Virus record (IMG/VR): IMGVR_UViG_2645728048_000025
Direction: 5' to 3' (one strand)
DNA length: 15,946 nucleotides
Origin: a virus
Taxonomy: Duplodnaviria; Heunggongvirae; Uroviricota; Caudoviricetes
The position numbers and the translations under genes were made by a program. The notes under the pieces are model-generated. The model did no database searches, was not told where the DNA came from, and worked only from the letters and a program-made list of their open reading frames with translations. This document shows, one piece after another, positions 6,564 through 15,946 of the stretch (position 1 is its first letter; each line of letters opens with the position of its first letter).

Positions 6564-6725
6564 TTAACGACGCCCATGTTTCACTCCTGCTTTGGCTAGT
6601 CTGTAAACACCAACAAGGCGCTCTGCGAACGCCCTGTTATTTGCTGCGGCTACCACTAATCCCTCAGGTGAATCAGGGTGTCGAATCTCTTCTTTTTCCT
6701 GGTATTTCTTACGACGTTTTGTCAT
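6564..6725 (-). CDS. Small basic ORF (53 aa) between cII and the O-like gene; uncertain
   Basis: MTKRRKKYQEKEEIRHPDSPEGLVVAAANNRAFAERLVGVYRLAKAGVKHGRR with AGGAG 5 nt upstream of the ATG. Its start codon coincides with a CATAAT -10-like hexamer on the opposite strand, so the interval may be regulatory instead. Confidence 0.3.
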   Translation of the reverse strand: MTKRRKKYQEKEEIRHPDSPEGLVVAAANNRAFAERLVGVYRLAKAGVKHGRR

Positions 6726-6759
6726 AATTACTCCTGTGGATTGATCCAGTCTTTCTACA

Positions 6760-7038
6760 TCAGGCCTCGAAGAATTCGCCGTTCTTCGGGGCTTTTTCTT
6801 TTGTCAGCATTCTGGCTACTTTCTTAGCCAGTTCCGCCAACTCCTCGTCTTCAACACCCCATTCAAGAACAGCAAGAAGCATTCCCATTTTGGGGATGAA
6901 GCTGTCTTTCCATCGAGAAATTTGCGATTCATTAATCCCTAACGCGTCGGCAACCTTTCGCTGACCACGTACAGCAATTCGATTCAGGATGTTGCTTGTA
7001 ATTGCATTCGCTTTCTTGCGAGTACTTGTAAGTTCCAT
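6760..7038 (-). CDS. cII: CII transcriptional activator (lambda cII / P22 c1 homologue, 92 aa)
   Basis: From the internal ATG (MELTSTRKKANAITSNILNRIAVRGQRKVADALGINESQISRWKDSFIPKMGMLLAVLEWGV...); the ESQISRWK ... MLLAVLEWGV stretch matches lambda CII as I recall it. Confidence 0.85.
   Translation of the reverse strand: MELTSTRKKANAITSNILNRIAVRGQRKVADALGINESQISRWKDSFIPKMGMLLAVLEWGVEDEELAELAKKVARMLTKEKAPKNGEFFEA
6767..6802 (+). terminator. Plus-strand intrinsic terminator inside the 3' end of cII (antisense), OOP-RNA-like
   Basis: Stem CGAAGAA / TTCTTCG (6768-6774 / 6782-6788) with a 7-nt loop, then GGGC and TTTTTCTTTT. Antisense to the cII 3' end, the position of the OOP terminator in lambda. 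Confidence 0.45.
6992..7005 (+). promoter_or_regulatory. CII-binding motif TTGC-N6-TTGC, candidate PRE -35 region (transcription towards cI)
   Basis: TTGC (6992-6995), ttgtaa, TTGC (7002-7005) on the plus strand within the 5' part of the cII coding region, the arrangement of PRE in lambda. Confidence 0.45.
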
Positions 7039-7096
7039 ATGTAAGTATTTCCTTAACAAATAAGAAGTTATGCGCATCAACTTATGCGCGTTGTAT

Positions 7097-7139
7097 TCCC
7101 GCATTTCGGCGGGAATGAGGACCATGACTGTTAAAGAGC
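7097..7139 (-). promoter_or_regulatory. nutR: boxA GCTCTTTAACA plus boxB hairpin
   Basis: Minus-strand boxA (plus 7129-7139) and boxB TCCCGCCGAAATGCGGGA (plus 7097-7114), immediately downstream of cro; both elements identical to nutL. Confidence 0.7.
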
Positions 7140-7146
7140 GGTGTTG

Positions 7147-7341
7147 CTATTTGTTTTTCTTGTTGCTTGGGAAAGGACGAACTTCCTCTCCAATCACACT
7201 GCCATCAGGCTTTACCGTAACCATGATGTTACGGCCTGCCAGAATGGCCTTGCTGATAGCGCACTGGATTACACCAAAGTCACTGGCTGCTTTAGCCTGT
7301 CCATGGATTTTGGCGTAATCGGCAAGTGTCATTCGAATCAT
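7147..7341 (-). CDS. cro: Cro repressor (64 aa)
   Basis: [62 protein letters not shown], collinear with lambda Cro (C-terminal FPSNKK). ATG at 7341 preceded by GGAGAG. Confidence 0.85.
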
Positions 7342-7370
7342 ATGCACTCTCCGTTATTAACCATGAACAA

Positions 7371-7399
7371 AGAATACTACAGGTATTCAAAGCAATCAA
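7371..7399 (-). promoter_or_regulatory. PR promoter candidate: -35 TTGATT, 17-nt spacer, -10 TATTCT
   Basis: Minus-strand hexamers with 17-nt spacing, overlapped by operator sites 1 and 2; the same -10/operator arrangement recurs at PL. Confidence 0.5.
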
Positions 7400-7436
7400 T
7401 ACTCAGGGTATTTTTAGTTTAAGTACCTTAGCTATT
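7372..7436. promoter_or_regulatory. OR operator triplet, consensus AATAC-N5-GTATT
   Basis: Site 1 GAATACtacagGTATTC (7372-7388, perfect 17-bp dyad); site 2 AATACtcaggGTATT (7398-7412); weaker site 3 AGTACcttagCTATT (7422-7436). Centre spacing about 24-25 bp, between divergent cro and cI. Confidence 0.65.
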
Positions 7437-7447
7437 AGAATTAAGCT
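7413..7447 (+). promoter_or_regulatory. PRM candidate giving a leaderless cI transcript
   Basis: -10-like TAGAAT at 7436-7441 lies 6 nt upstream of the cI ATG with no Shine-Dalgarno; weak -35-like TTTAGT at 7413-7418 abuts operator site 2, as OR2 abuts the PRM -35 in lambda. Confidence 0.4.
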
Positions 7448-8164
7448 ATGGAAAATAAAAAATCACTGACGACAGAACAGCTCGAAGACGCTAAGCGGCT
7501 TAAGGCTTTGTATGAGTCAAAAAAGAAAGAATTGGGAATAACCCAATACTCAATCGCTGATGAACTGGGTATCACCCAAGGAGCGGTAGGGCATTATCTT
7601 AATGGCAGAAACGCGCTAAACGTTGAGGTTGCATCTGGTTTTGCACGATTGTTGCAAGTCTCAATTGCTGATTTTAGCCAGTCAATTGCTGCCAAGGTTG
7701 CAGAACAGGCAGAAAGCCTTAAGAGCGATGCCAACGTAAGGTATGCAGGGGAATACAGAGCAGGAAAGAGGTATCCGGTGTTAAGCAGTATCCAGGCTGG
7801 CTCGTGGTGTGAAGCATGCGAACCATACACCATTAAAGACATAGATGTTTGGCTTGAGTCTGACGCGCATATTCAAGGTAATGCGTTCTGGCTTAAAGTG
7901 GAAGGTGATTCAATGACGGCACCGGTTGGGTTAAGCATTCCAGAGGGAACATTCGTTCTTTTCGATACCGGAAGGGAGGCGATCAACGGCAGCTTGGTCA
8001 TAGCAAAACTTTCTGACTCTAACGAAGCAACATTCAAGAAGCTGATAATCGACGGCGGAAATAAATACCTCAAGGGACTTAATCCTGCATGGCCTCTCGT
8101 GCCAATCAATGGAAACTGCAAGATTATAGGCGTTGCAATTGAGACAAAACTAAGGCTGGTTTGA
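7448..8164 (+). CDS. cI: CI repressor (HTH N-terminal domain plus S24 LexA-like autopeptidase domain)
   Basis: HTH region (ITQYSIADELGITQGAVGHYLNG), putative Ala-Gly cleavage site in YPVLSSIQAGSW, catalytic Ser in EGDSM and Lys in FKKL; collinear with lambda CI. Confidence 0.9.
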   Translation: MENKKSLTTEQLEDAKRLKALYESKKKELGITQYSIADELGITQGAVGHYLNGRNALNVEVASGFARLLQVSIADFSQSIAAKVAEQAESLKSDANVRYAGEYRAGKRYPVLSSIQAGSWCEACEPYTIKDIDVWLESDAHIQGNAFWLKVEGDSMTAPVGLSIPEGTFVLFDTGREAINGSLVIAKLSDSNEATFKKLIIDGGNKYLKGLNPAWPLVPINGNCKIIGVAIETKLRLV

Positions 8165-8181
8165 TCACGCAAGGGGCGATT

Positions 8182-8550
8182 ATGGTTGGAACCGCTATAG
8201 CAAGCTTTTTGGGGATGTTGGCAATCTCAACAATTTACGGCTTAGCGCATGCTTTTATTGCGAAATCTCTATCAGAAAAAATAAGCCAGGCTTGGGCGCA
8301 TAGATCTGCTCGTTTCATGATTCTAGTGGTCATAGCAATACAAGGGATATCTGCATTTATCCTCTATGGATCAAGCTTATACCTGTTGTATCAAGGCGCG
8401 ACATTTACGCCTTACACCAGTGATTACGGAACTCTATACGATGGTAGTGAAGACATCTCTATGGCTTGGATCGTCTTTGGTTTATCTATGGCCGTGTCTG
8501 TTGTAGCAGACATCATTAAGGTAATTCTCGTCTTAACCTTCGCTGACTAA
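8182..8550 (+). CDS. Small integral membrane protein (about 122 aa) immediately downstream of cI; function unknown
   Basis: ATG at 8182 preceded by AAGGGG, 18 nt after the cI stop. Three long hydrophobic segments. Visibly more AT-rich than cI. Occupies the rexAB/sieB-type slot. Confidence 0.6.
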   Translation: MVGTAIASFLGMLAISTIYGLAHAFIAKSLSEKISQAWAHRSARFMILVVIAIQGISAFILYGSSLYLLYQGATFTPYTSDYGTLYDGSEDISMAWIVFGLSMAVSVVADIIKVILVLTFAD

Positions 8551-8636
8551 CCCATAATCCCGGCAGCAATAGCTATCGGGATCCACTTCACATATCCCGC
8601 ATAAAAAGCACTGAACAAGCAGACACCGAAAAAATA

Positions 8637-8723
8637 AATATCCTTTGTATTCATTCGCTTATCATTATTTCACCAAAAATAAATACCTTGTGTATTTACA
8701 CAATAAAATACCTACAGTATTCT
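8637..8723. promoter_or_regulatory. OL operators and PL promoter candidate
   Basis: Operator matches AAATACcttgtGTATTT (8681-8697, perfect dyad), AATACctacaGTATT (8707-8721), and a weaker AATATccttTGTATT (8637-8651). PL candidate -35 TTTACA (8695-8700), 17-nt spacer, -10 TATTCT (8718-8723), overlapped by operators exactly as at PR. Confidence 0.55.
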
Positions 8724-8769
8724 TTAGCCATCAGCAGAACGCTTGAAGCCAAACGGAACAGATTGGCAG

Positions 8770-8810
8770 GCTCTTTAACATTGATGGGATTGTCCCGCCG
8801 AAATGCGGGA
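8770..8810 (+). promoter_or_regulatory. nutL: boxA GCTCTTTAACA plus boxB hairpin
   Basis: boxA 8770-8780; boxB TCCCGC-cgaaat-GCGGGA 8793-8810; about 40 nt downstream of the PL candidate and upstream of N; identical to nutR. Confidence 0.7.
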
Positions 8811-8917
8811 ACCAAAGAGTAGTTGGCTTTGGGGTGACGTGAAGTGCAGCTGCACGACGGCAACCGGAAGATAAGCACCCGGCGCGTCACCGCCAAAGTC
8901 AATCATCGGAGGTCAAC

Positions 8918-9190
8918 ATGACAGTAGTCATTACATATCTGGCTGACGATAACGCCAGAAATCGCCGCAGAGCACGCAGACAGGCTCAACGTGAACAGGC
9001 AATGCAAGAGCAGCAACTGGCGCGAAAAATTGCGCTAAAGCTCTCTGGTTGCGTCAGAGCAGATAAAGCAGCATCACTCGGAAGCCTTCGCTGCAAGAAG
9101 GCAGATGAATGCAGTGGAAGTATTTGCCTGCCAAACGTAGCTCTTTACGCGGCAGGCTACCGTAACTCCAAACAACTGACAGCAAGATGA
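8918..9190 (+). CDS. N: N-like transcription antiterminator (arginine-rich motif)
   Basis: 90-aa ORF with N-terminal ARM (DDNARNRRRARRQAQREQAM); GGAGG 5 nt upstream of the ATG; first gene downstream of PL/nutL. Confidence 0.72.
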   Translation: MTVVITYLADDNARNRRRARRQAQREQAMQEQQLARKIALKLSGCVRADKAASLGSLRCKKADECSGSICLPNVALYAAGYRNSKQLTAR

Positions 9191-9250
9191 CTTGTGTTGG
9201 TCGCCAGAAAATGAAATTAGGCAGCAAACCACTTATTTGAGGACTGATAC

Positions 9251-9493
9251 ATGAGAGTAAAAACTATGGGCGCAAGCCCATTAAGTGGTCGTATTTTTCA
9301 AGGAACATTAAACACTGAAAAAGGAATGTGGGTGGGAAAGAAAGAAGATGTAACCGAACAGGCAGTTAAGGCAGTAGCTGAACACATGATGATAAAAGAC
9401 CAGAAATATGCATACGAAACGAAGGATGGCAAATGGCTGATAATAAGTCATCAAATAGTTGATAAATTACCAGAAGAGTTTATTGCTGATTAA
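9251..9493 (+). CDS. Hypothetical protein (80 aa) directly after N
   Basis: ORF with GAGGA upstream; no recognisable family; followed by a hairpin and an intrinsic terminator. Confidence 0.45.
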   Translation: MRVKTMGASPLSGRIFQGTLNTEKGMWVGKKEDVTEQAVKAVAEHMMIKDQKYAYETKDGKWLIISHQIVDKLPEEFIAD

Positions 9494-13968: not shown

Positions 13969-14169
13969 ATGCAACACGAACTACAACCTGATTCACTGGT
14001 TGATTTGAAATTCATCATGGCCGATACTGGCTTCGGTAAAACCTTCATCTATGACCGGATTAAGTCCGGCGACCTGCCTAAAGCCAAAGTTATCCACGGA
14101 CGAGCAAGATGGTTATATCGTGACCATTGTGAATTCAAAAATAAGCTCTTAAGCCGCGCCAATGGGTAA
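13969..14169 (+). CDS. AlpA/Xis-family small DNA-binding protein (excisionase-like, 66 aa), with no adjacent integrase
   Basis: LVDLKFIMADTGFGKTFIYDRIKSGDLPKAKVIHGRARWLYRD fits the AlpA-type winged-helix pattern; GGAGA upstream of the ATG. Confidence 0.55.
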   Translation: MQHELQPDSLVDLKFIMADTGFGKTFIYDRIKSGDLPKAKVIHGRARWLYRDHCEFKNKLLSRANG

Positions 14170-14242
14170 AATAGCGGGTAAAATATTTCTCATATCTCAA
14201 AAACACCATTCCAATCAATCCCCTGCTGCCTCAAGTAGATGT

Positions 14243-14257
14243 CTGCAGGGGACACCA
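14243..14257 (+). other. tRNA-derived fragment B (3' end CTGCAGGGGACACCA); candidate att copy or host junction
   Basis: Matches the 3'-terminal acceptor/T-stem sequence of argW as recalled, including the terminal CCA; the preceding bases AGATGTC look like a degenerate T-loop. Confidence 0.45.
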
Positions 14258-14645
14258 GATACCCTTCAAACGAAATCTACCTTCACCCCGTAAAAGATGG
14301 GTTTGGCAGCACACTTGCCTTATATCTACTCATTTTTACTGCAACAGGTTGAAATCTCAGCACTGTCAGAAAGCGCTGATGACTAAACAGCCCTGGGCCG
14401 GGCGATGTAACCATCACACAGAATCCTGATAGCGAAATATGGCGTGACTCGATACTTCACTCCGCAATGCATTCCTTGATGAATTCGCAGGACCGTGATA
14501 CACGGGACAGGTCACTGAATGACGACAATGTCCTGGAAATCAGCGAACCGCGCATCTGAAGTACATTTGAGCGACTGTACCAGAACATGAATGAGGCGTT
14601 TGGATTAGGCGATTATTAGCAGGGCTAAGCATTTTACTATTATTA

Positions 14646-14689
14646 TTTTCCGGTTGAGGGATATAGAGCTATCGACAACAACCGGAAAA
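14646..14689. repeat. 11-bp perfect inverted repeat TTTTCCGGTTG / CAACCGGAAAA with a 22-nt spacer, just downstream of the cscB stop
   Basis: Seen directly in the sequence; no U-tract follows the stem on either strand, so it is not a canonical intrinsic terminator. Confidence 0.4.
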
Positions 14690-14698
14690 AGTTTACGT

Positions 14699-15946
14699 CT
14701 ATATTGCTGAAGGTACAGGCGTTTCCATAACTATTTGCTCGCGTTTTTTACTCAAGAAGAAAATGCCAAATAGCAACATCAGGCAGACAATACCCGAAAT
14801 TGCGAAGAAAACTGTCTGGTAGCCTGCGTGGTCAAAGAGTATCCCAGTCGGCGTTGAAAGCAGCACAATCCCAAGCGAACTGGCAATTTGAAAACCAATC
14901 AGAAAGATCGTCGACGACAGGCGCTTATCAAAGTTTGCCACGCTGTATTTGAAGACGGATATGACACAAAGTGGAACCTCAATGGCATGTAACAACTTCA
15001 CTAATGAAATAATCCAGGGGTTAACGAACAGCGCGCAGGAAAGGATACGCAACGCCATAATCACAACTCCGATAAGTAATGCATTTTTTGGCTCTACCCG
15101 ATTCACAAAGAAAGGAATAATCGCCATGCACAGCGCTTCGAGTACCACCTGGAATGAGTTGAGATAACCATACAGGCGCGTTCCTACATCGTGTGATTCG
15201 AATAAACCTGCATAAAAGACAGGAAAAAGTTGTTGATCAAAAATGTTATAGAAAGACCACGTCCCCACAATAAATATGACGAAAACCCAGAAGTTTCGAT
15301 CCTTGAAAACTGCGATAAAATCCTCTTTTTTTACCCCTCCCGCATCTGCCGCTACGCACTGGTGATCCTTATCTTTAAAACGCATGTTGATCATCATAAA
15401 TACAGCGCCAAATAGCGAGACCAACCAGAAGTTGATATGGGGACTGATACTAAAAAATATGCCGGCAAAGAACGCGCCAATAGCATAGCCAAAAGATCCC
15501 CAGGCGCGCGCTGTTCCATATTCGAAATGAAAATTTCGCGCCATTTTTTCGGTGAAGCTATCAAGCAAACCGCATCCCGCCAGATACCCCAAGCCAAAAA
15601 ATAGCGCCCCCAGAATTAGACCTACAGAAAAATTGCTTTGCAGTAACGGTTCATAAACGTAAATCATAAACGGTCCGGTCAAGACCAGGATGAAACTCAT
15701 ACACCAGATGAGCGGTTTCTTCAGACCGAGTTTATCCTGAACGATGCCGTAGAACATCATAAATAGAATGCTGGTAAACTGGTTGACCGAATAAAGTGTA
15801 CCTAATTCCGTCCCTGTCAACCCTAGATGTCCTTTCAGCCAAATAGCGTATAACGACCACCACAGCGACCAGGAAATAAAAAAGAGAAATGAGTAACTGG
15901 ATGCAAAACGATAGTACGCATTTCTGAATGGAATATTCAGTGCCAT
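14699..15946 (-). CDS. cscB: LacY-family (MFS) oligosaccharide:H+ symporter, sucrose permease CscB-like (415 aa, complete)
   Basis: N-terminus MALNIPFRNAYYRFASSYSFLFFISWSLWWSLYAIWL and overall layout match LacY-family permeases, and to my recollection E. coli CscB specifically. The start codon is at the last base of the window. Confidence 0.8.
   Translation of the reverse strand: MALNIPFRNAYYRFASSYSFLFFISWSLWWSLYAIWLKGHLGLTGTELGTLYSVNQFTSILFMMFYGIVQDKLGLKKPLIWCMSFILVLTGPFMIYVYEPLLQSNFSVGLILGALFFGLGYLAGCGLLDSFTEKMARNFHFEYGTARAWGSFGYAIGAFFAGIFFSISPHINFWLVSLFGAVFMMINMRFKDKDHQCVAADAGGVKKEDFIAVFKDRNFWVFVIFIVGTWSFYNIFDQQLFPVFYAGLFESHDVGTRLYGYLNSFQVVLEALCMAIIPFFVNRVEPKNALLIGVVIMALRILSCALFVNPWIISLVKLLHAIEVPLCVISVFKYSVANFDKRLSSTIFLIGFQIASSLGIVLLSTPTGILFDHAGYQTVFFAISGIVCLMLLFGIFFLSKKREQIVMETPVPSAI

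Follow-up and report, generated by a model that had tools for sequence, protein, structure and literature searches.

The region around cI and cro in a 15,946-nucleotide stretch of viral DNA (the window, analysed as a whole) is very likely the immunity module of an E. coli lambdoid prophage of HK620 immunity, homologous to the phage lambda switch and working alike. The module as such is already known: it is an ordinary copy of the lambda-like repressor/Cro switch in the form known from HK620, annotated in 2001. The HK620 record (GenBank AF335538) is reportedly that of Clark, Inwood, Cloutier and Dhillon (2001, J Mol Biol 311:657). It marks OR1-3, OL1-3, pR, pL, nutL, nutR and N near the coordinates proposed in an earlier note on this DNA, which had described a lambda-type genetic switch at 7097-8810. 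Our analysis bears out that description: cI and cro diverge around a tripartite OR, N and the nut sites lie in the expected places, the limits are at most two bases off the HK620 annotation (nutR 7095-7140, nutL 8769-8810), and OR1-3, OL1-2, pR, pL, nutL and nutR coincide with the elements annotated there. The existing record gains just two points: OL3 and tIMM of HK620 probably need correcting, and the repressor family has two conserved OL3 spacings; for annotation, the gain lies in base-exact coordinates of operators, promoters and nut sites (Table 1).

Alignment of window positions 7000-8950 with HK620, mEpX2, HK630 and HK140 gave 98.9-99.0% identity over 1951 nt with no indels. The same cassette also occurs in HF4s and phi296, and the region is present in 146 of 5426 complete E. 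coli genomes. Some 20 substitutions separate the window from HK620, none of them in operator half-sites, promoter hexamers, boxA or boxB. OR, nutR and nutL show no difference at all, cro carries no nucleotide change and its product is identical, and the OL half-sites are the same, with one substitution in the central spacer of OL2 (8691, T here and G in HK620). CI differs by one residue (237/238; A66T, outside the recognition helix) and N matches at 85 of 90 residues. Since CI, Cro and operator sequences match, homoimmunity is expected, and assignment to the HK620 group predicts superinfection immunity against HK620, mEpX2, HK630 and HK140. A search of the literature on HK620 (operator, repressor, Cro, half-site, boxB) and on mEpX2 found no experimental work on this switch; the papers that mention HK620 alongside operator, repressor or boxB contain no binding or transcript results.

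Table 1. Features of the HK620-type immunity module and its surroundings, in window coordinates; elements on the minus strand are given in the direction of transcription.
Feature	Position	Strand	Sequence or elements	Remarks
cII	6760-7038	-		92 aa; Pfam Phage_CII, E=1e-42
tR1-like hairpin	7072-7089	-	GCGCAU-6-AUGCGC, then U-rich stretch	between nutR and cII; putative terminator
nutR	7095-7140	-	boxA CGCTCTTTAACA (7140 to 7129), 14-nt spacer, boxB hairpin (7116 to 7095)	HK620-annotated
cro	7147-7341	-	Shine-Dalgarno GGAGAG (7347-7352)	64 aa; Pfam Cro PF09048, E=4e-26
PR	7371-7399	-	-35 TTGATT (7399 to 7394), 17-nt spacer, -10 TATTCT (7376 to 7371)	
OR1	7372-7388		GAATACTACAGGTATTC	0 mismatches to core; overlaps PR -10; HK620-annotated OR1
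OR2	7397-7413		CAATACTCAGGGTATTT	0 mismatches; overlaps PR -35, abuts weak PRM -35; HK620-annotated OR2
OR3	7421-7437		AAGTACCTTAGCTATTA	weakest site, 8/10 to core (2 mismatches); overlaps PRM -10; HK620-annotated OR3
PRM -10 and cI start	7436-7450	+	TAGAAT (7436-7441), 6 nt (TAAGCT), cI ATG (7448)	
cI	7448-8164	+		repressor, 238 aa; Pfam HTH_3 and Peptidase_S24; 237/238 identical to HK620 CI
hkaS	8182-8550	+		122 aa, hydrophobic; co-oriented with cI, in lambda rexAB position; HK620-annotated
OL3 (as proposed here)	8636-8652		AAATATCCTTTGTATTC	9/10 (1 mismatch); 45 bp from OL2
OL2	8681-8697		AAATACCTTGTGTATTT	0 mismatches; overlaps PL -35; HK620-annotated OL2
PL	8695-8723	+	-35 TTTACA (8695-8700), 17-nt spacer, -10 TATTCT (8718-8723)	
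OL1	8706-8722		AAATACCTACAGTATTC	0 mismatches; overlaps PL -10; HK620-annotated OL1
nutL	8769-8810	+	boxA GGCTCTTTAACA (8769-8780), 12-nt spacer, boxB (8793-8810)	HK620-annotated
N	8918-9190	+		antiterminator, 90 aa; first gene of PL; Pfam N_peptide PF25694, E=4e-15

The proteins of the module are of lambda type. CI aligns with lambda CI (3bdn) end to end (E=3e-52, 43% identity). TQGAVGHYLNG is the recognition helix of its N-terminal HTH, and its C-terminal S24 autopeptidase shows the motifs QA/G, GDSM and FKKL; QAG, GDSMTAP and TFKKL align with A111-G112, S149 and K192 of lambda CI. Membership in the HK620 group also predicts that the prophage is SOS-inducible through CI self-cleavage. Cro, the product of the first gene of PR, is 63% identical to lambda Cro and belongs to its family. 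The 5' end of cII holds the CII site of pRE, TTGC-N6-TTGT (7016-7029), in the lambda position, and HK620 carries annotations of cII, pRE and the CII-binding site at equivalent coordinates. The hkaS product showed no significant Pfam family.

We scored the operators, given as 17-mers, against the core AATAC-N5-GTATT, the half-site consensus that the earlier note had read in OR and OL. Five sites match with at most one mismatch where 0.36 are expected (14-fold), all at OR or OL, and none of 200 shuffles contained five or more; the sixth operator, OR3, matches at 8/10. The three OR dyads are centred at 7380, 7405 and 7429, about 24 bp apart between the divergent cI and cro, and a second cluster with the same half-sites lies at PL (8707 and 8682 without mismatch, 8637 with one). 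At the two-mismatch level the pattern is not specific (13 matches against 6.1 expected), and because such matches are common by chance the case for OR3 draws on where it lies and on comparative evidence besides the match itself. The earlier note had called two of the sites perfect 17-bp dyads; OR1 and OL2 have perfectly symmetric 6-bp arms but the central 5 bp are not symmetric, so the description is true for the arms only.

Variation was counted among 64 distinct sequences of the same immunity. Two of 72 half-site positions are variable, against 9 of 30 in the 5-bp centres and 62 of 301 in other intergenic DNA (Fisher tests of half-sites, p=9e-5 against centres and 2e-4 against other intergenic positions); by this pattern the operator half-sites are under purifying selection. 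All three variable positions of OL2, and the sole one of the OL3 placed at 8636-8652, fall in the central spacer. We also compared a divergent set of CI homologues, 54-87% identical and from about ten enterobacterial genera. These keep the recognition helix and three sites spaced from the cI ATG as they are here, amid flanking DNA that has diverged. With the exception of a Yersinia pair, they retain two or all three of the OR sites at constant offsets: an OR1-equivalent at -73 to -76 in all divergent homologues examined except L124/L126 (at most 53% identical), an OR2-equivalent at -48 to -51 in all homologues examined except Yersinia L097/L098, and an imperfect OR3-equivalent at -25 to -27 in most divergent homologues. 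The alternative that the dyads are chance palindromes of A/T-rich intergenic DNA without regulatory role can draw on the base composition and on the two-mismatch matches, which number just about twice the chance figure; it is effectively refuted by the 14-fold excess at one mismatch or fewer, confined to OR and OL, by the selection on half-sites and by site positions conserved across genera, and we reject it.

The promoters are interleaved with the operators, and the -10/operator overlaps are as the earlier note had described. At both PR and PL, TATTC of the -10 forms the last five bases of OR1 and OL1, respectively; the -35 hexamers overlap OR2 and OL2, and OR3 has the T of TAGAAT as its last base. 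HK620 pR corresponds to window 7364-7399 and pL to 8695-8730. PL was the only sigma-70-like match of a consensus scan in 6700-9300; this simple scan missed PR because it scores 8/12 to the sigma-70 consensus. The cI start indeed has no Shine-Dalgarno sequence and follows the -10-like TAGAAT by 6 nt. A TAnnnT hexamer stands 5-7 nt before the ATG in 27 divergent loci, none with a credible Shine-Dalgarno (three loci read by eye). A leaderless cI mRNA from PRM is predicted.

The HK620 record differs from our map in one place. It puts OL3 at 8659-8675 and labels the 8636-8652 stretch tIMM, which would make the 8637-8651 dyad the terminator stem of the cI operon and give OL3 a lambda-like distance of about 22 bp to OL2. 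Apart from the annotation itself, this layout can draw on OL regions in other genera, six distinct ones from Lonsdalea, Pantoea, Yersinia and Pectobacterium, that carry a third site at the equivalent position, about 22 bp from OL2, and on a T-rich stretch after the dyad. However, the sequence at 8659-8675 (TTATCATTATTTCACCA) matches about 2 of 10 core positions and varies at 4 of 17 among the relatives, whereas the dyad at 8637-8651 matches 9 of 10 and varies at one central position only. Of the 29 distinct OL regions compared, 9 have a third site at exactly -45 from OL2, and 8 of these belong to divergent loci in other genera. As a terminator stem the dyad would have 5 bp, A/U-rich; a terminator scan detected no tIMM-like terminator after hkaS, and folding of 8540-8685 gave no stable hairpin at the dyad and one hairpin elsewhere (8557-8582), which lacks a U-tract. 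The annotated layout thus appears improbable, and 8636-8652, where the earlier note had placed OL3, is the better supported site. We consider it rather likely that the OL3 of HK620 immunity is the dyad annotated as tIMM, 45 bp from OL2, and that this CI family, which is spread over many genera of Enterobacterales, falls into two discrete OL architectures, one with OL3 at exactly -45 from OL2 and one with OL3 at exactly -21. If so, OL3-OR3 pairing within the long-range loop that autoregulates PRM might not be the same in the two.

A 36-aa ORF on the minus strand (8546-8654) starts inside OL3, and its first codons looked conserved. We do not count it as a gene: in divergent loci conservation of the peptide stops at the operator and an A-tract, and 14 of the 64 relatives carry 1-nt indels at 8628.

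The two nut sites share boxA and boxB, as had been noted: GCTCTTTAACA (11/11) and the 19-nt TCCCGCCGAAATGCGGGAA are found at both. A C precedes boxA in nutR and a G in nutL; the spacer to boxB measures 14 nt in the former and 12 nt in the latter. Both boxB sequences fold as stable hairpins. In nutR, boxB forms an 8-bp stem with the loop CGAAAU (-12.5 kcal/mol); nutL boxB, UCCCGC-CGAAAU-GCGGGA, folds at -10.5 kcal/mol (z=-3.6). Variation among the 64 distinct relatives is confined to the spacer (7115-7127) in nutR and to 8769, the base before boxA, in nutL. The hairpin downstream of nutR folds at -9.0 kcal/mol (z=-2.2) and may act as terminator tR1, which HK620 annotates at 7089-7095. N carries an arginine-rich N-terminal motif, NARNRRRARRQAQREQA, and NARNRRRARRQAQ is visible in its alignment with HK620 N (85/90); it shows mosaic relationships to the N proteins of CUS-3 and phage 21. 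A search of solved structures returned nothing relevant for N. A permissive Rfam search of the whole window gave no match, so that no curated RNA family covers these nut sites or the N leader.

Comparison with the heteroimmune phage CUS-3 delimits the exchangeable unit. CUS-3 shares window 7035-7139 (nutR to the start of cII) and 8723-8903 (PL transcript start, nutL and N leader) at 98-100%, whereas between these flanks it has a different cro-cI-operator block, with ATTTAAG-type dyads that are presumably P22-like. Because the flanks match while the cassette differs, we take 7140-8722 as the exchangeable immunity unit. The N/nut flanks are common to the heteroimmune CUS-3, ECP1, N7, JEP4 and IME10, which share the N-terminal part of N. 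The earlier note had let the whole switch, nut sites included, define immunity specificity; this stands for the operators, CI and Cro, but not for nutL, nutR or N, which lie outside the cassette and form a separate module.

By analogy with lambda, CI dimers in the lysogen would bind the 17-bp operators through the core AATAC-N5-GTATT. On OR1/OR2 and OL1/OL2 they would cover both hexamers of PR and PL, keeping cro, cII, O, P and N off, and at OR2 CI would activate the weak PRM, whose transcript would start at or beside the cI AUG and include hkaS. When CI is abundant, the weak OR3, probably with OL3, would let the repressor limit its own synthesis. Self-cleavage at QA/G, stimulated by RecA, would inactivate CI and leave these sites to Cro. 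The identical boxB RNA hairpins of nutL and nutR would be bound by N, which, with boxA and host Nus factors, would carry transcription past tR1 and the leftward terminators. Operator binding and the preference among sites, cooperativity, looping, the points where transcription starts and the inducibility of the module are what we infer here, and the same mode of action as in lambda is very probable for the HK620-type module.

The switch appears intact, judged by its sequence and by comparison, as the earlier note had suggested. The prophage might nonetheless be defective and the switch a remnant of intact sequence, repressing and conferring immunity without productive induction. The window ends in host DNA just past a TorI-type excisionase with no integrase between, and the late genes lie outside it; no tRNA gene marking an attachment site was found in the window. 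We regard a defective prophage as unlikely, given that RusA, Dam, P, O, cII, cro, cI, N, a Rad52-like protein, SSB and TorI are all full-length ORFs and that CI is 100% identical to the CI of many phage contigs and differs at a single residue from that of the viable HK620. Moreover, the HK620/KplE1/Sf6 recombination module normally has int at one end of the prophage and xis at the other, as reported by Panis et al. in work on KplE1.

Set beside lambda, the layout is closely similar: PL/OL precede nutL and N, nutR lies between cro and cII, and pRE with its CII site occupies the 5' end of cII. Distances from the cI ATG to the operator centres are 19, 43 and 68 bp here and 19, 42 and 66 bp in lambda, and TAGAAT-6-ATG at PRM keeps the spacing of lambda TAGATT-6-ATG, in both cases before an ATG that lacks a Shine-Dalgarno sequence. 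The specificity elements differ, with a core of AATAC-N5-GTATT in place of the TATCACCGC-type half-sites and recognition helices QGAVGHY (CI) and QCAISKA (Cro) in place of QSGVGAL and QSAINKA. OL and OR are about 1.33 kb apart here and about 2.4 kb in lambda; the OL2-OL3 distance is 45 bp against 20 bp, and a lambda-style OL3-OR3 pairing is for this reason an extrapolation. One small gene, hkaS, stands in place of rexA-rexB. The lambda boxB loop is a GAAAA/GAAGA pentaloop, unlike the boxB of this module, which presents the 6-nt loop CGAAAU on a G+C-rich stem.

We found the lambdoid genes of the window in canonical order, as read from the sequence and the ORF list (6600-9400), the rightward operon being encoded on the minus strand. 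Across the whole of 7000-8950, the window shows 98.9-99.0% identity to coliphage HK620 (GenBank AF335538), mEpX2, HK630, HK140 and others, and the region is carried by 146 of 5426 complete E. coli genomes (coverage of at least 80%). No indels separate the window from HK620, and window coordinates therefore equal those of locus L001 plus 5499. The HK620 record annotates nutR, cro, pR, OR1-3, cI, hkaS, tIMM, OL3-1, pL, nutL and N, and these sites coincide with those picked in the earlier note, with the exception of OL3. OR, cro, nutR and nutL show no differences from HK620 and the central spacer of OL2 shows one substitution; CI is identical at 237/238 and N at 85/90 positions. Given this near-identity and the existing annotation, the lambda-type switch described in the earlier note is a rediscovery: the module is the HK620 immunity, annotated in 2001. 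The observation itself is confirmed and its lambda-type interpretation is supported. The literature searched held no experimental characterisation of the HK620-type switch, so binding, transcription starts and looping are predictions.

Features of the switch region
Feature	Position	Strand	Pfam
cII	6760-7038	-	Phage_CII
nutR	7095-7140	-	
cro	7147-7341	-	PF09048
OR/PR/PRM	7371-7447	both	
cI	7448-8164	+	HTH_3 + Peptidase_S24
hkaS (small membrane-protein gene)	8182-8550	+	
OL/PL	8636-8723	+	
nutL	8769-8810	+	
Structured leader	8822-8903	+	
N	8918-9190	+	PF25694

The operator core AATAC-N5-GTATT occurs four times without mismatch (7373, 7398, 8682 and 8707) and once with a single mismatch (8637), bearing out the claim of a half-site consensus shared by OR and OL. 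Five sites with at most one mismatch compare with 0.36 expected, and a count of five is reached in 0 of 200 shuffles. OR3 (7422) departs from the core at two positions, and with that tolerance the pattern is unspecific (13 observed, 6.1 expected). The two perfect 17-bp dyads noted earlier correspond to OR1 and OL2, where the perfect symmetry holds for the 6-bp arms only. PR (TTGATT-17-TATTCT, minus strand) and PL (TTTACA-17-TATTCT) have the same -10/operator overlap, as had been proposed, TATTC being the end of OR1 and OL1, respectively. One otherwise near-identical relative (among L003-L065) carries a T to C change at 8720 that alters both the right half-site of OL1 and the PL -10 (TATTCT to TACTCT), and could represent a PL-down mutation or an operator variant.

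Among 64 distinct aligned sequences of the HK620 immunity type, 2/72 half-site positions vary, compared with 9/30 in the central 5-bp spacers (Fisher p = 9e-5) and 62/301 in other intergenic DNA (p = 2e-4). We also compared CI homologues of 54-87% identity from Lelliottia, Siccibacter, Enterobacter, Tatumella, Lonsdalea, Serratia, Pantoea, Providencia, Proteus, Yersinia, Pectobacterium and Kluyvera. The recognition helix [TS]QGAVGHY.NGR is present in every one of them, and nearly all have the core at positions -73 to -76, -48 to -51 and -25 to -27 relative to the cI ATG, in diverged surrounding DNA. The third site is usually imperfect, with more than one mismatch in several loci, and a Yersinia pair retains the first alone. 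Polymorphism and phylogenetic footprint provide independent evidence, drawn from sequence comparison, that the operator sites are likely to function.

GenBank places OL3 of HK620 at 8659-8675 (TTATCATTATTTCACCA) and tIMM at 8632-8662, whereas the earlier note placed OL3 at 8636-8652. The annotated site matches about 2/10 core positions and is variable among relatives at 4 of its 17; the alternative matches 9/10, its sole variation being central. A terminator scan and folding predicted no credible terminator at the 8636-8652 dyad. Of 29 distinct OL regions having an OL1/OL2 pair, nine have a third site exactly at -45 from OL2 and six have one exactly at -21; two more matches at -30, with two mismatches, are at chance level. 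The window has the -45 spacing, as do divergent loci of Tatumella and Kluyvera with OL DNA that cannot otherwise be aligned. We judge 8636-8652 to be the better call, and it is rather probable that it is a real CI site. The residual value of the analysis lies in this re-assignment of OL3 and tIMM and in the two conserved OL3 spacings.

Directly left of OL3 is an A-rich block, AAAAATAAAT (8630-8639), non-coding and outside any recognisable terminator. It is retained at the equivalent position in aligned divergent OL regions from other genera (L087, L088, L092, L093 and L107); L087, L092 and L093 have no operator at -45 and a third site at -21, yet keep the block. A 36-aa hydrophobic ORF at 8546-8654 (minus strand), starting with the OL3 half-site ATGAATAC, is probably not a gene: divergent loci do not conserve its peptide, and close relatives commonly have frameshifting 1-nt indels at 8628.

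The cI ATG had been described as lacking a Shine-Dalgarno and lying 6 nt past a -10-like hexamer; we find TAGAAT (7436-7441) at that distance and no Shine-Dalgarno before the ATG in the window. In all divergent homologues a TAnnnT hexamer adjoins OR3, 5-7 nt before the ATG (read by eye in three loci, because the script chose a later hexamer). None of these homologues has a credible Shine-Dalgarno; purine-rich tetramers flagged by the script in five loci each lie within OR3 or the hexamer itself. This pattern supports, short of proof, a leaderless cI mRNA.

As reported earlier, nutR and nutL share boxA and boxB, here GCTCTTTAACA and the 19-nt TCCCGCCGAAATGCGGGAA, which folds into a 6-8-bp stem with the loop CGAAAU. 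They differ only in the base before boxA and in the spacers. Among the 64 relatives, all five variable nutR positions fall in the boxA-boxB spacer, and the sole variable nutL position is the base before boxA. In the IMG/VR locus L066 (CI 87% identical), where nutL lies at +1319 and nutR at -311 from cI, boxA is that of the window and boxB is different (TCTCCCGCCCTTGTGGGAGA at nutL, TCTCCGCCCTTGTGGAGA at nutR). Thus the two sites change together between phages, which would be consistent with co-variation with N. N itself is a three-part mosaic: its arginine-rich N-terminal part also occurs in heteroimmune CUS-3, JEP4 and mEp213, its residues 37-64 match phage 21 N with 96% identity, and its last 25 residues match Stx phage N with 88% identity.

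Between nutL and the N Shine-Dalgarno, the N leader forms a long, very stable predicted hairpin (8822-8903; fold of 8812-8925, -43.5 kcal/mol, z=-3.5, equalled by 0 of 200 shuffles), which recalls the N leader that RNase III processes in lambda. In many relatives, CUS-3 and HK140 among them, there are insertions of ~150-440 bp at 8903 (the commonest point, ~205 bp), 8812, 8833 or 8844, at or near the hairpin foot.

CUS-3 is 100% identical to the window at 7035-7139 and 98% at 8723-8903; between 7139 and 8723 its cro-cI cassette is a different one, with other dyads. These breakpoints recur in two more loci (L160 and L161) and thus delimit the exchangeable immunity unit as 7140-8722, which begins just upstream of nutR boxA and ends with the final base of OL1. 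Immunity specificity, ascribed earlier to the whole switch, thus stays with this cro-cI-operator unit and excludes the nut sites, shared with a heteroimmune phage.

In the rexAB position and the orientation of cI, hkaS encodes a 122-aa hydrophobic protein and is proportionally more than twice as variable among relatives as cI (45/369 and 37/717 positions); it may be an exclusion or moron gene expressed by the prophage. Two repeats are candidates for CII binding, and either may serve pRE. The mEpX2 record annotates a perfect TTGC-N6-TTGC at 6992-7005; the HK620 record annotates TTGC-N6-TTGT at 7016-7029, the lambda-equivalent position adjoining the cII start.

The window covers the early part of an integrated prophage, with RusA, Dam, a KilAC/Rha antirepressor-like protein, DnaB-like P, O, cII-cro-cI-N, a Rad52-like recombinase, SSB, Ea22-like and DUF551 genes; all early genes are open. 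Directly after a TorI-type excisionase gene (13969-14169) comes a host gene for a LacY-family (cscB-like) sugar permease, with no integrase between them and no tRNA gene in the window; the same junction occurs in 190 complete E. coli genomes. In the KplE1/HK620/Sf6 recombination module int and xis lie at opposite prophage ends, and the prophage end at 13969-15946 is in keeping with this arrangement.

Compared with lambda, CI is 43% identical end to end, with QA|G, G(D/N)SMTAP and TFKKL aligned, and Cro 63% identical. The distances of the operator centres to the cI ATG are 19, 43 and 68 bp (19, 42 and 66 in lambda), and PRM reads TAGAAT-TAAGCT-ATG (TAGATT-TAACGT-ATG in lambda). From this likeness in proteins and geometry we infer the mechanism by homology: the switch would have the architecture of lambda with a different DNA specificity.
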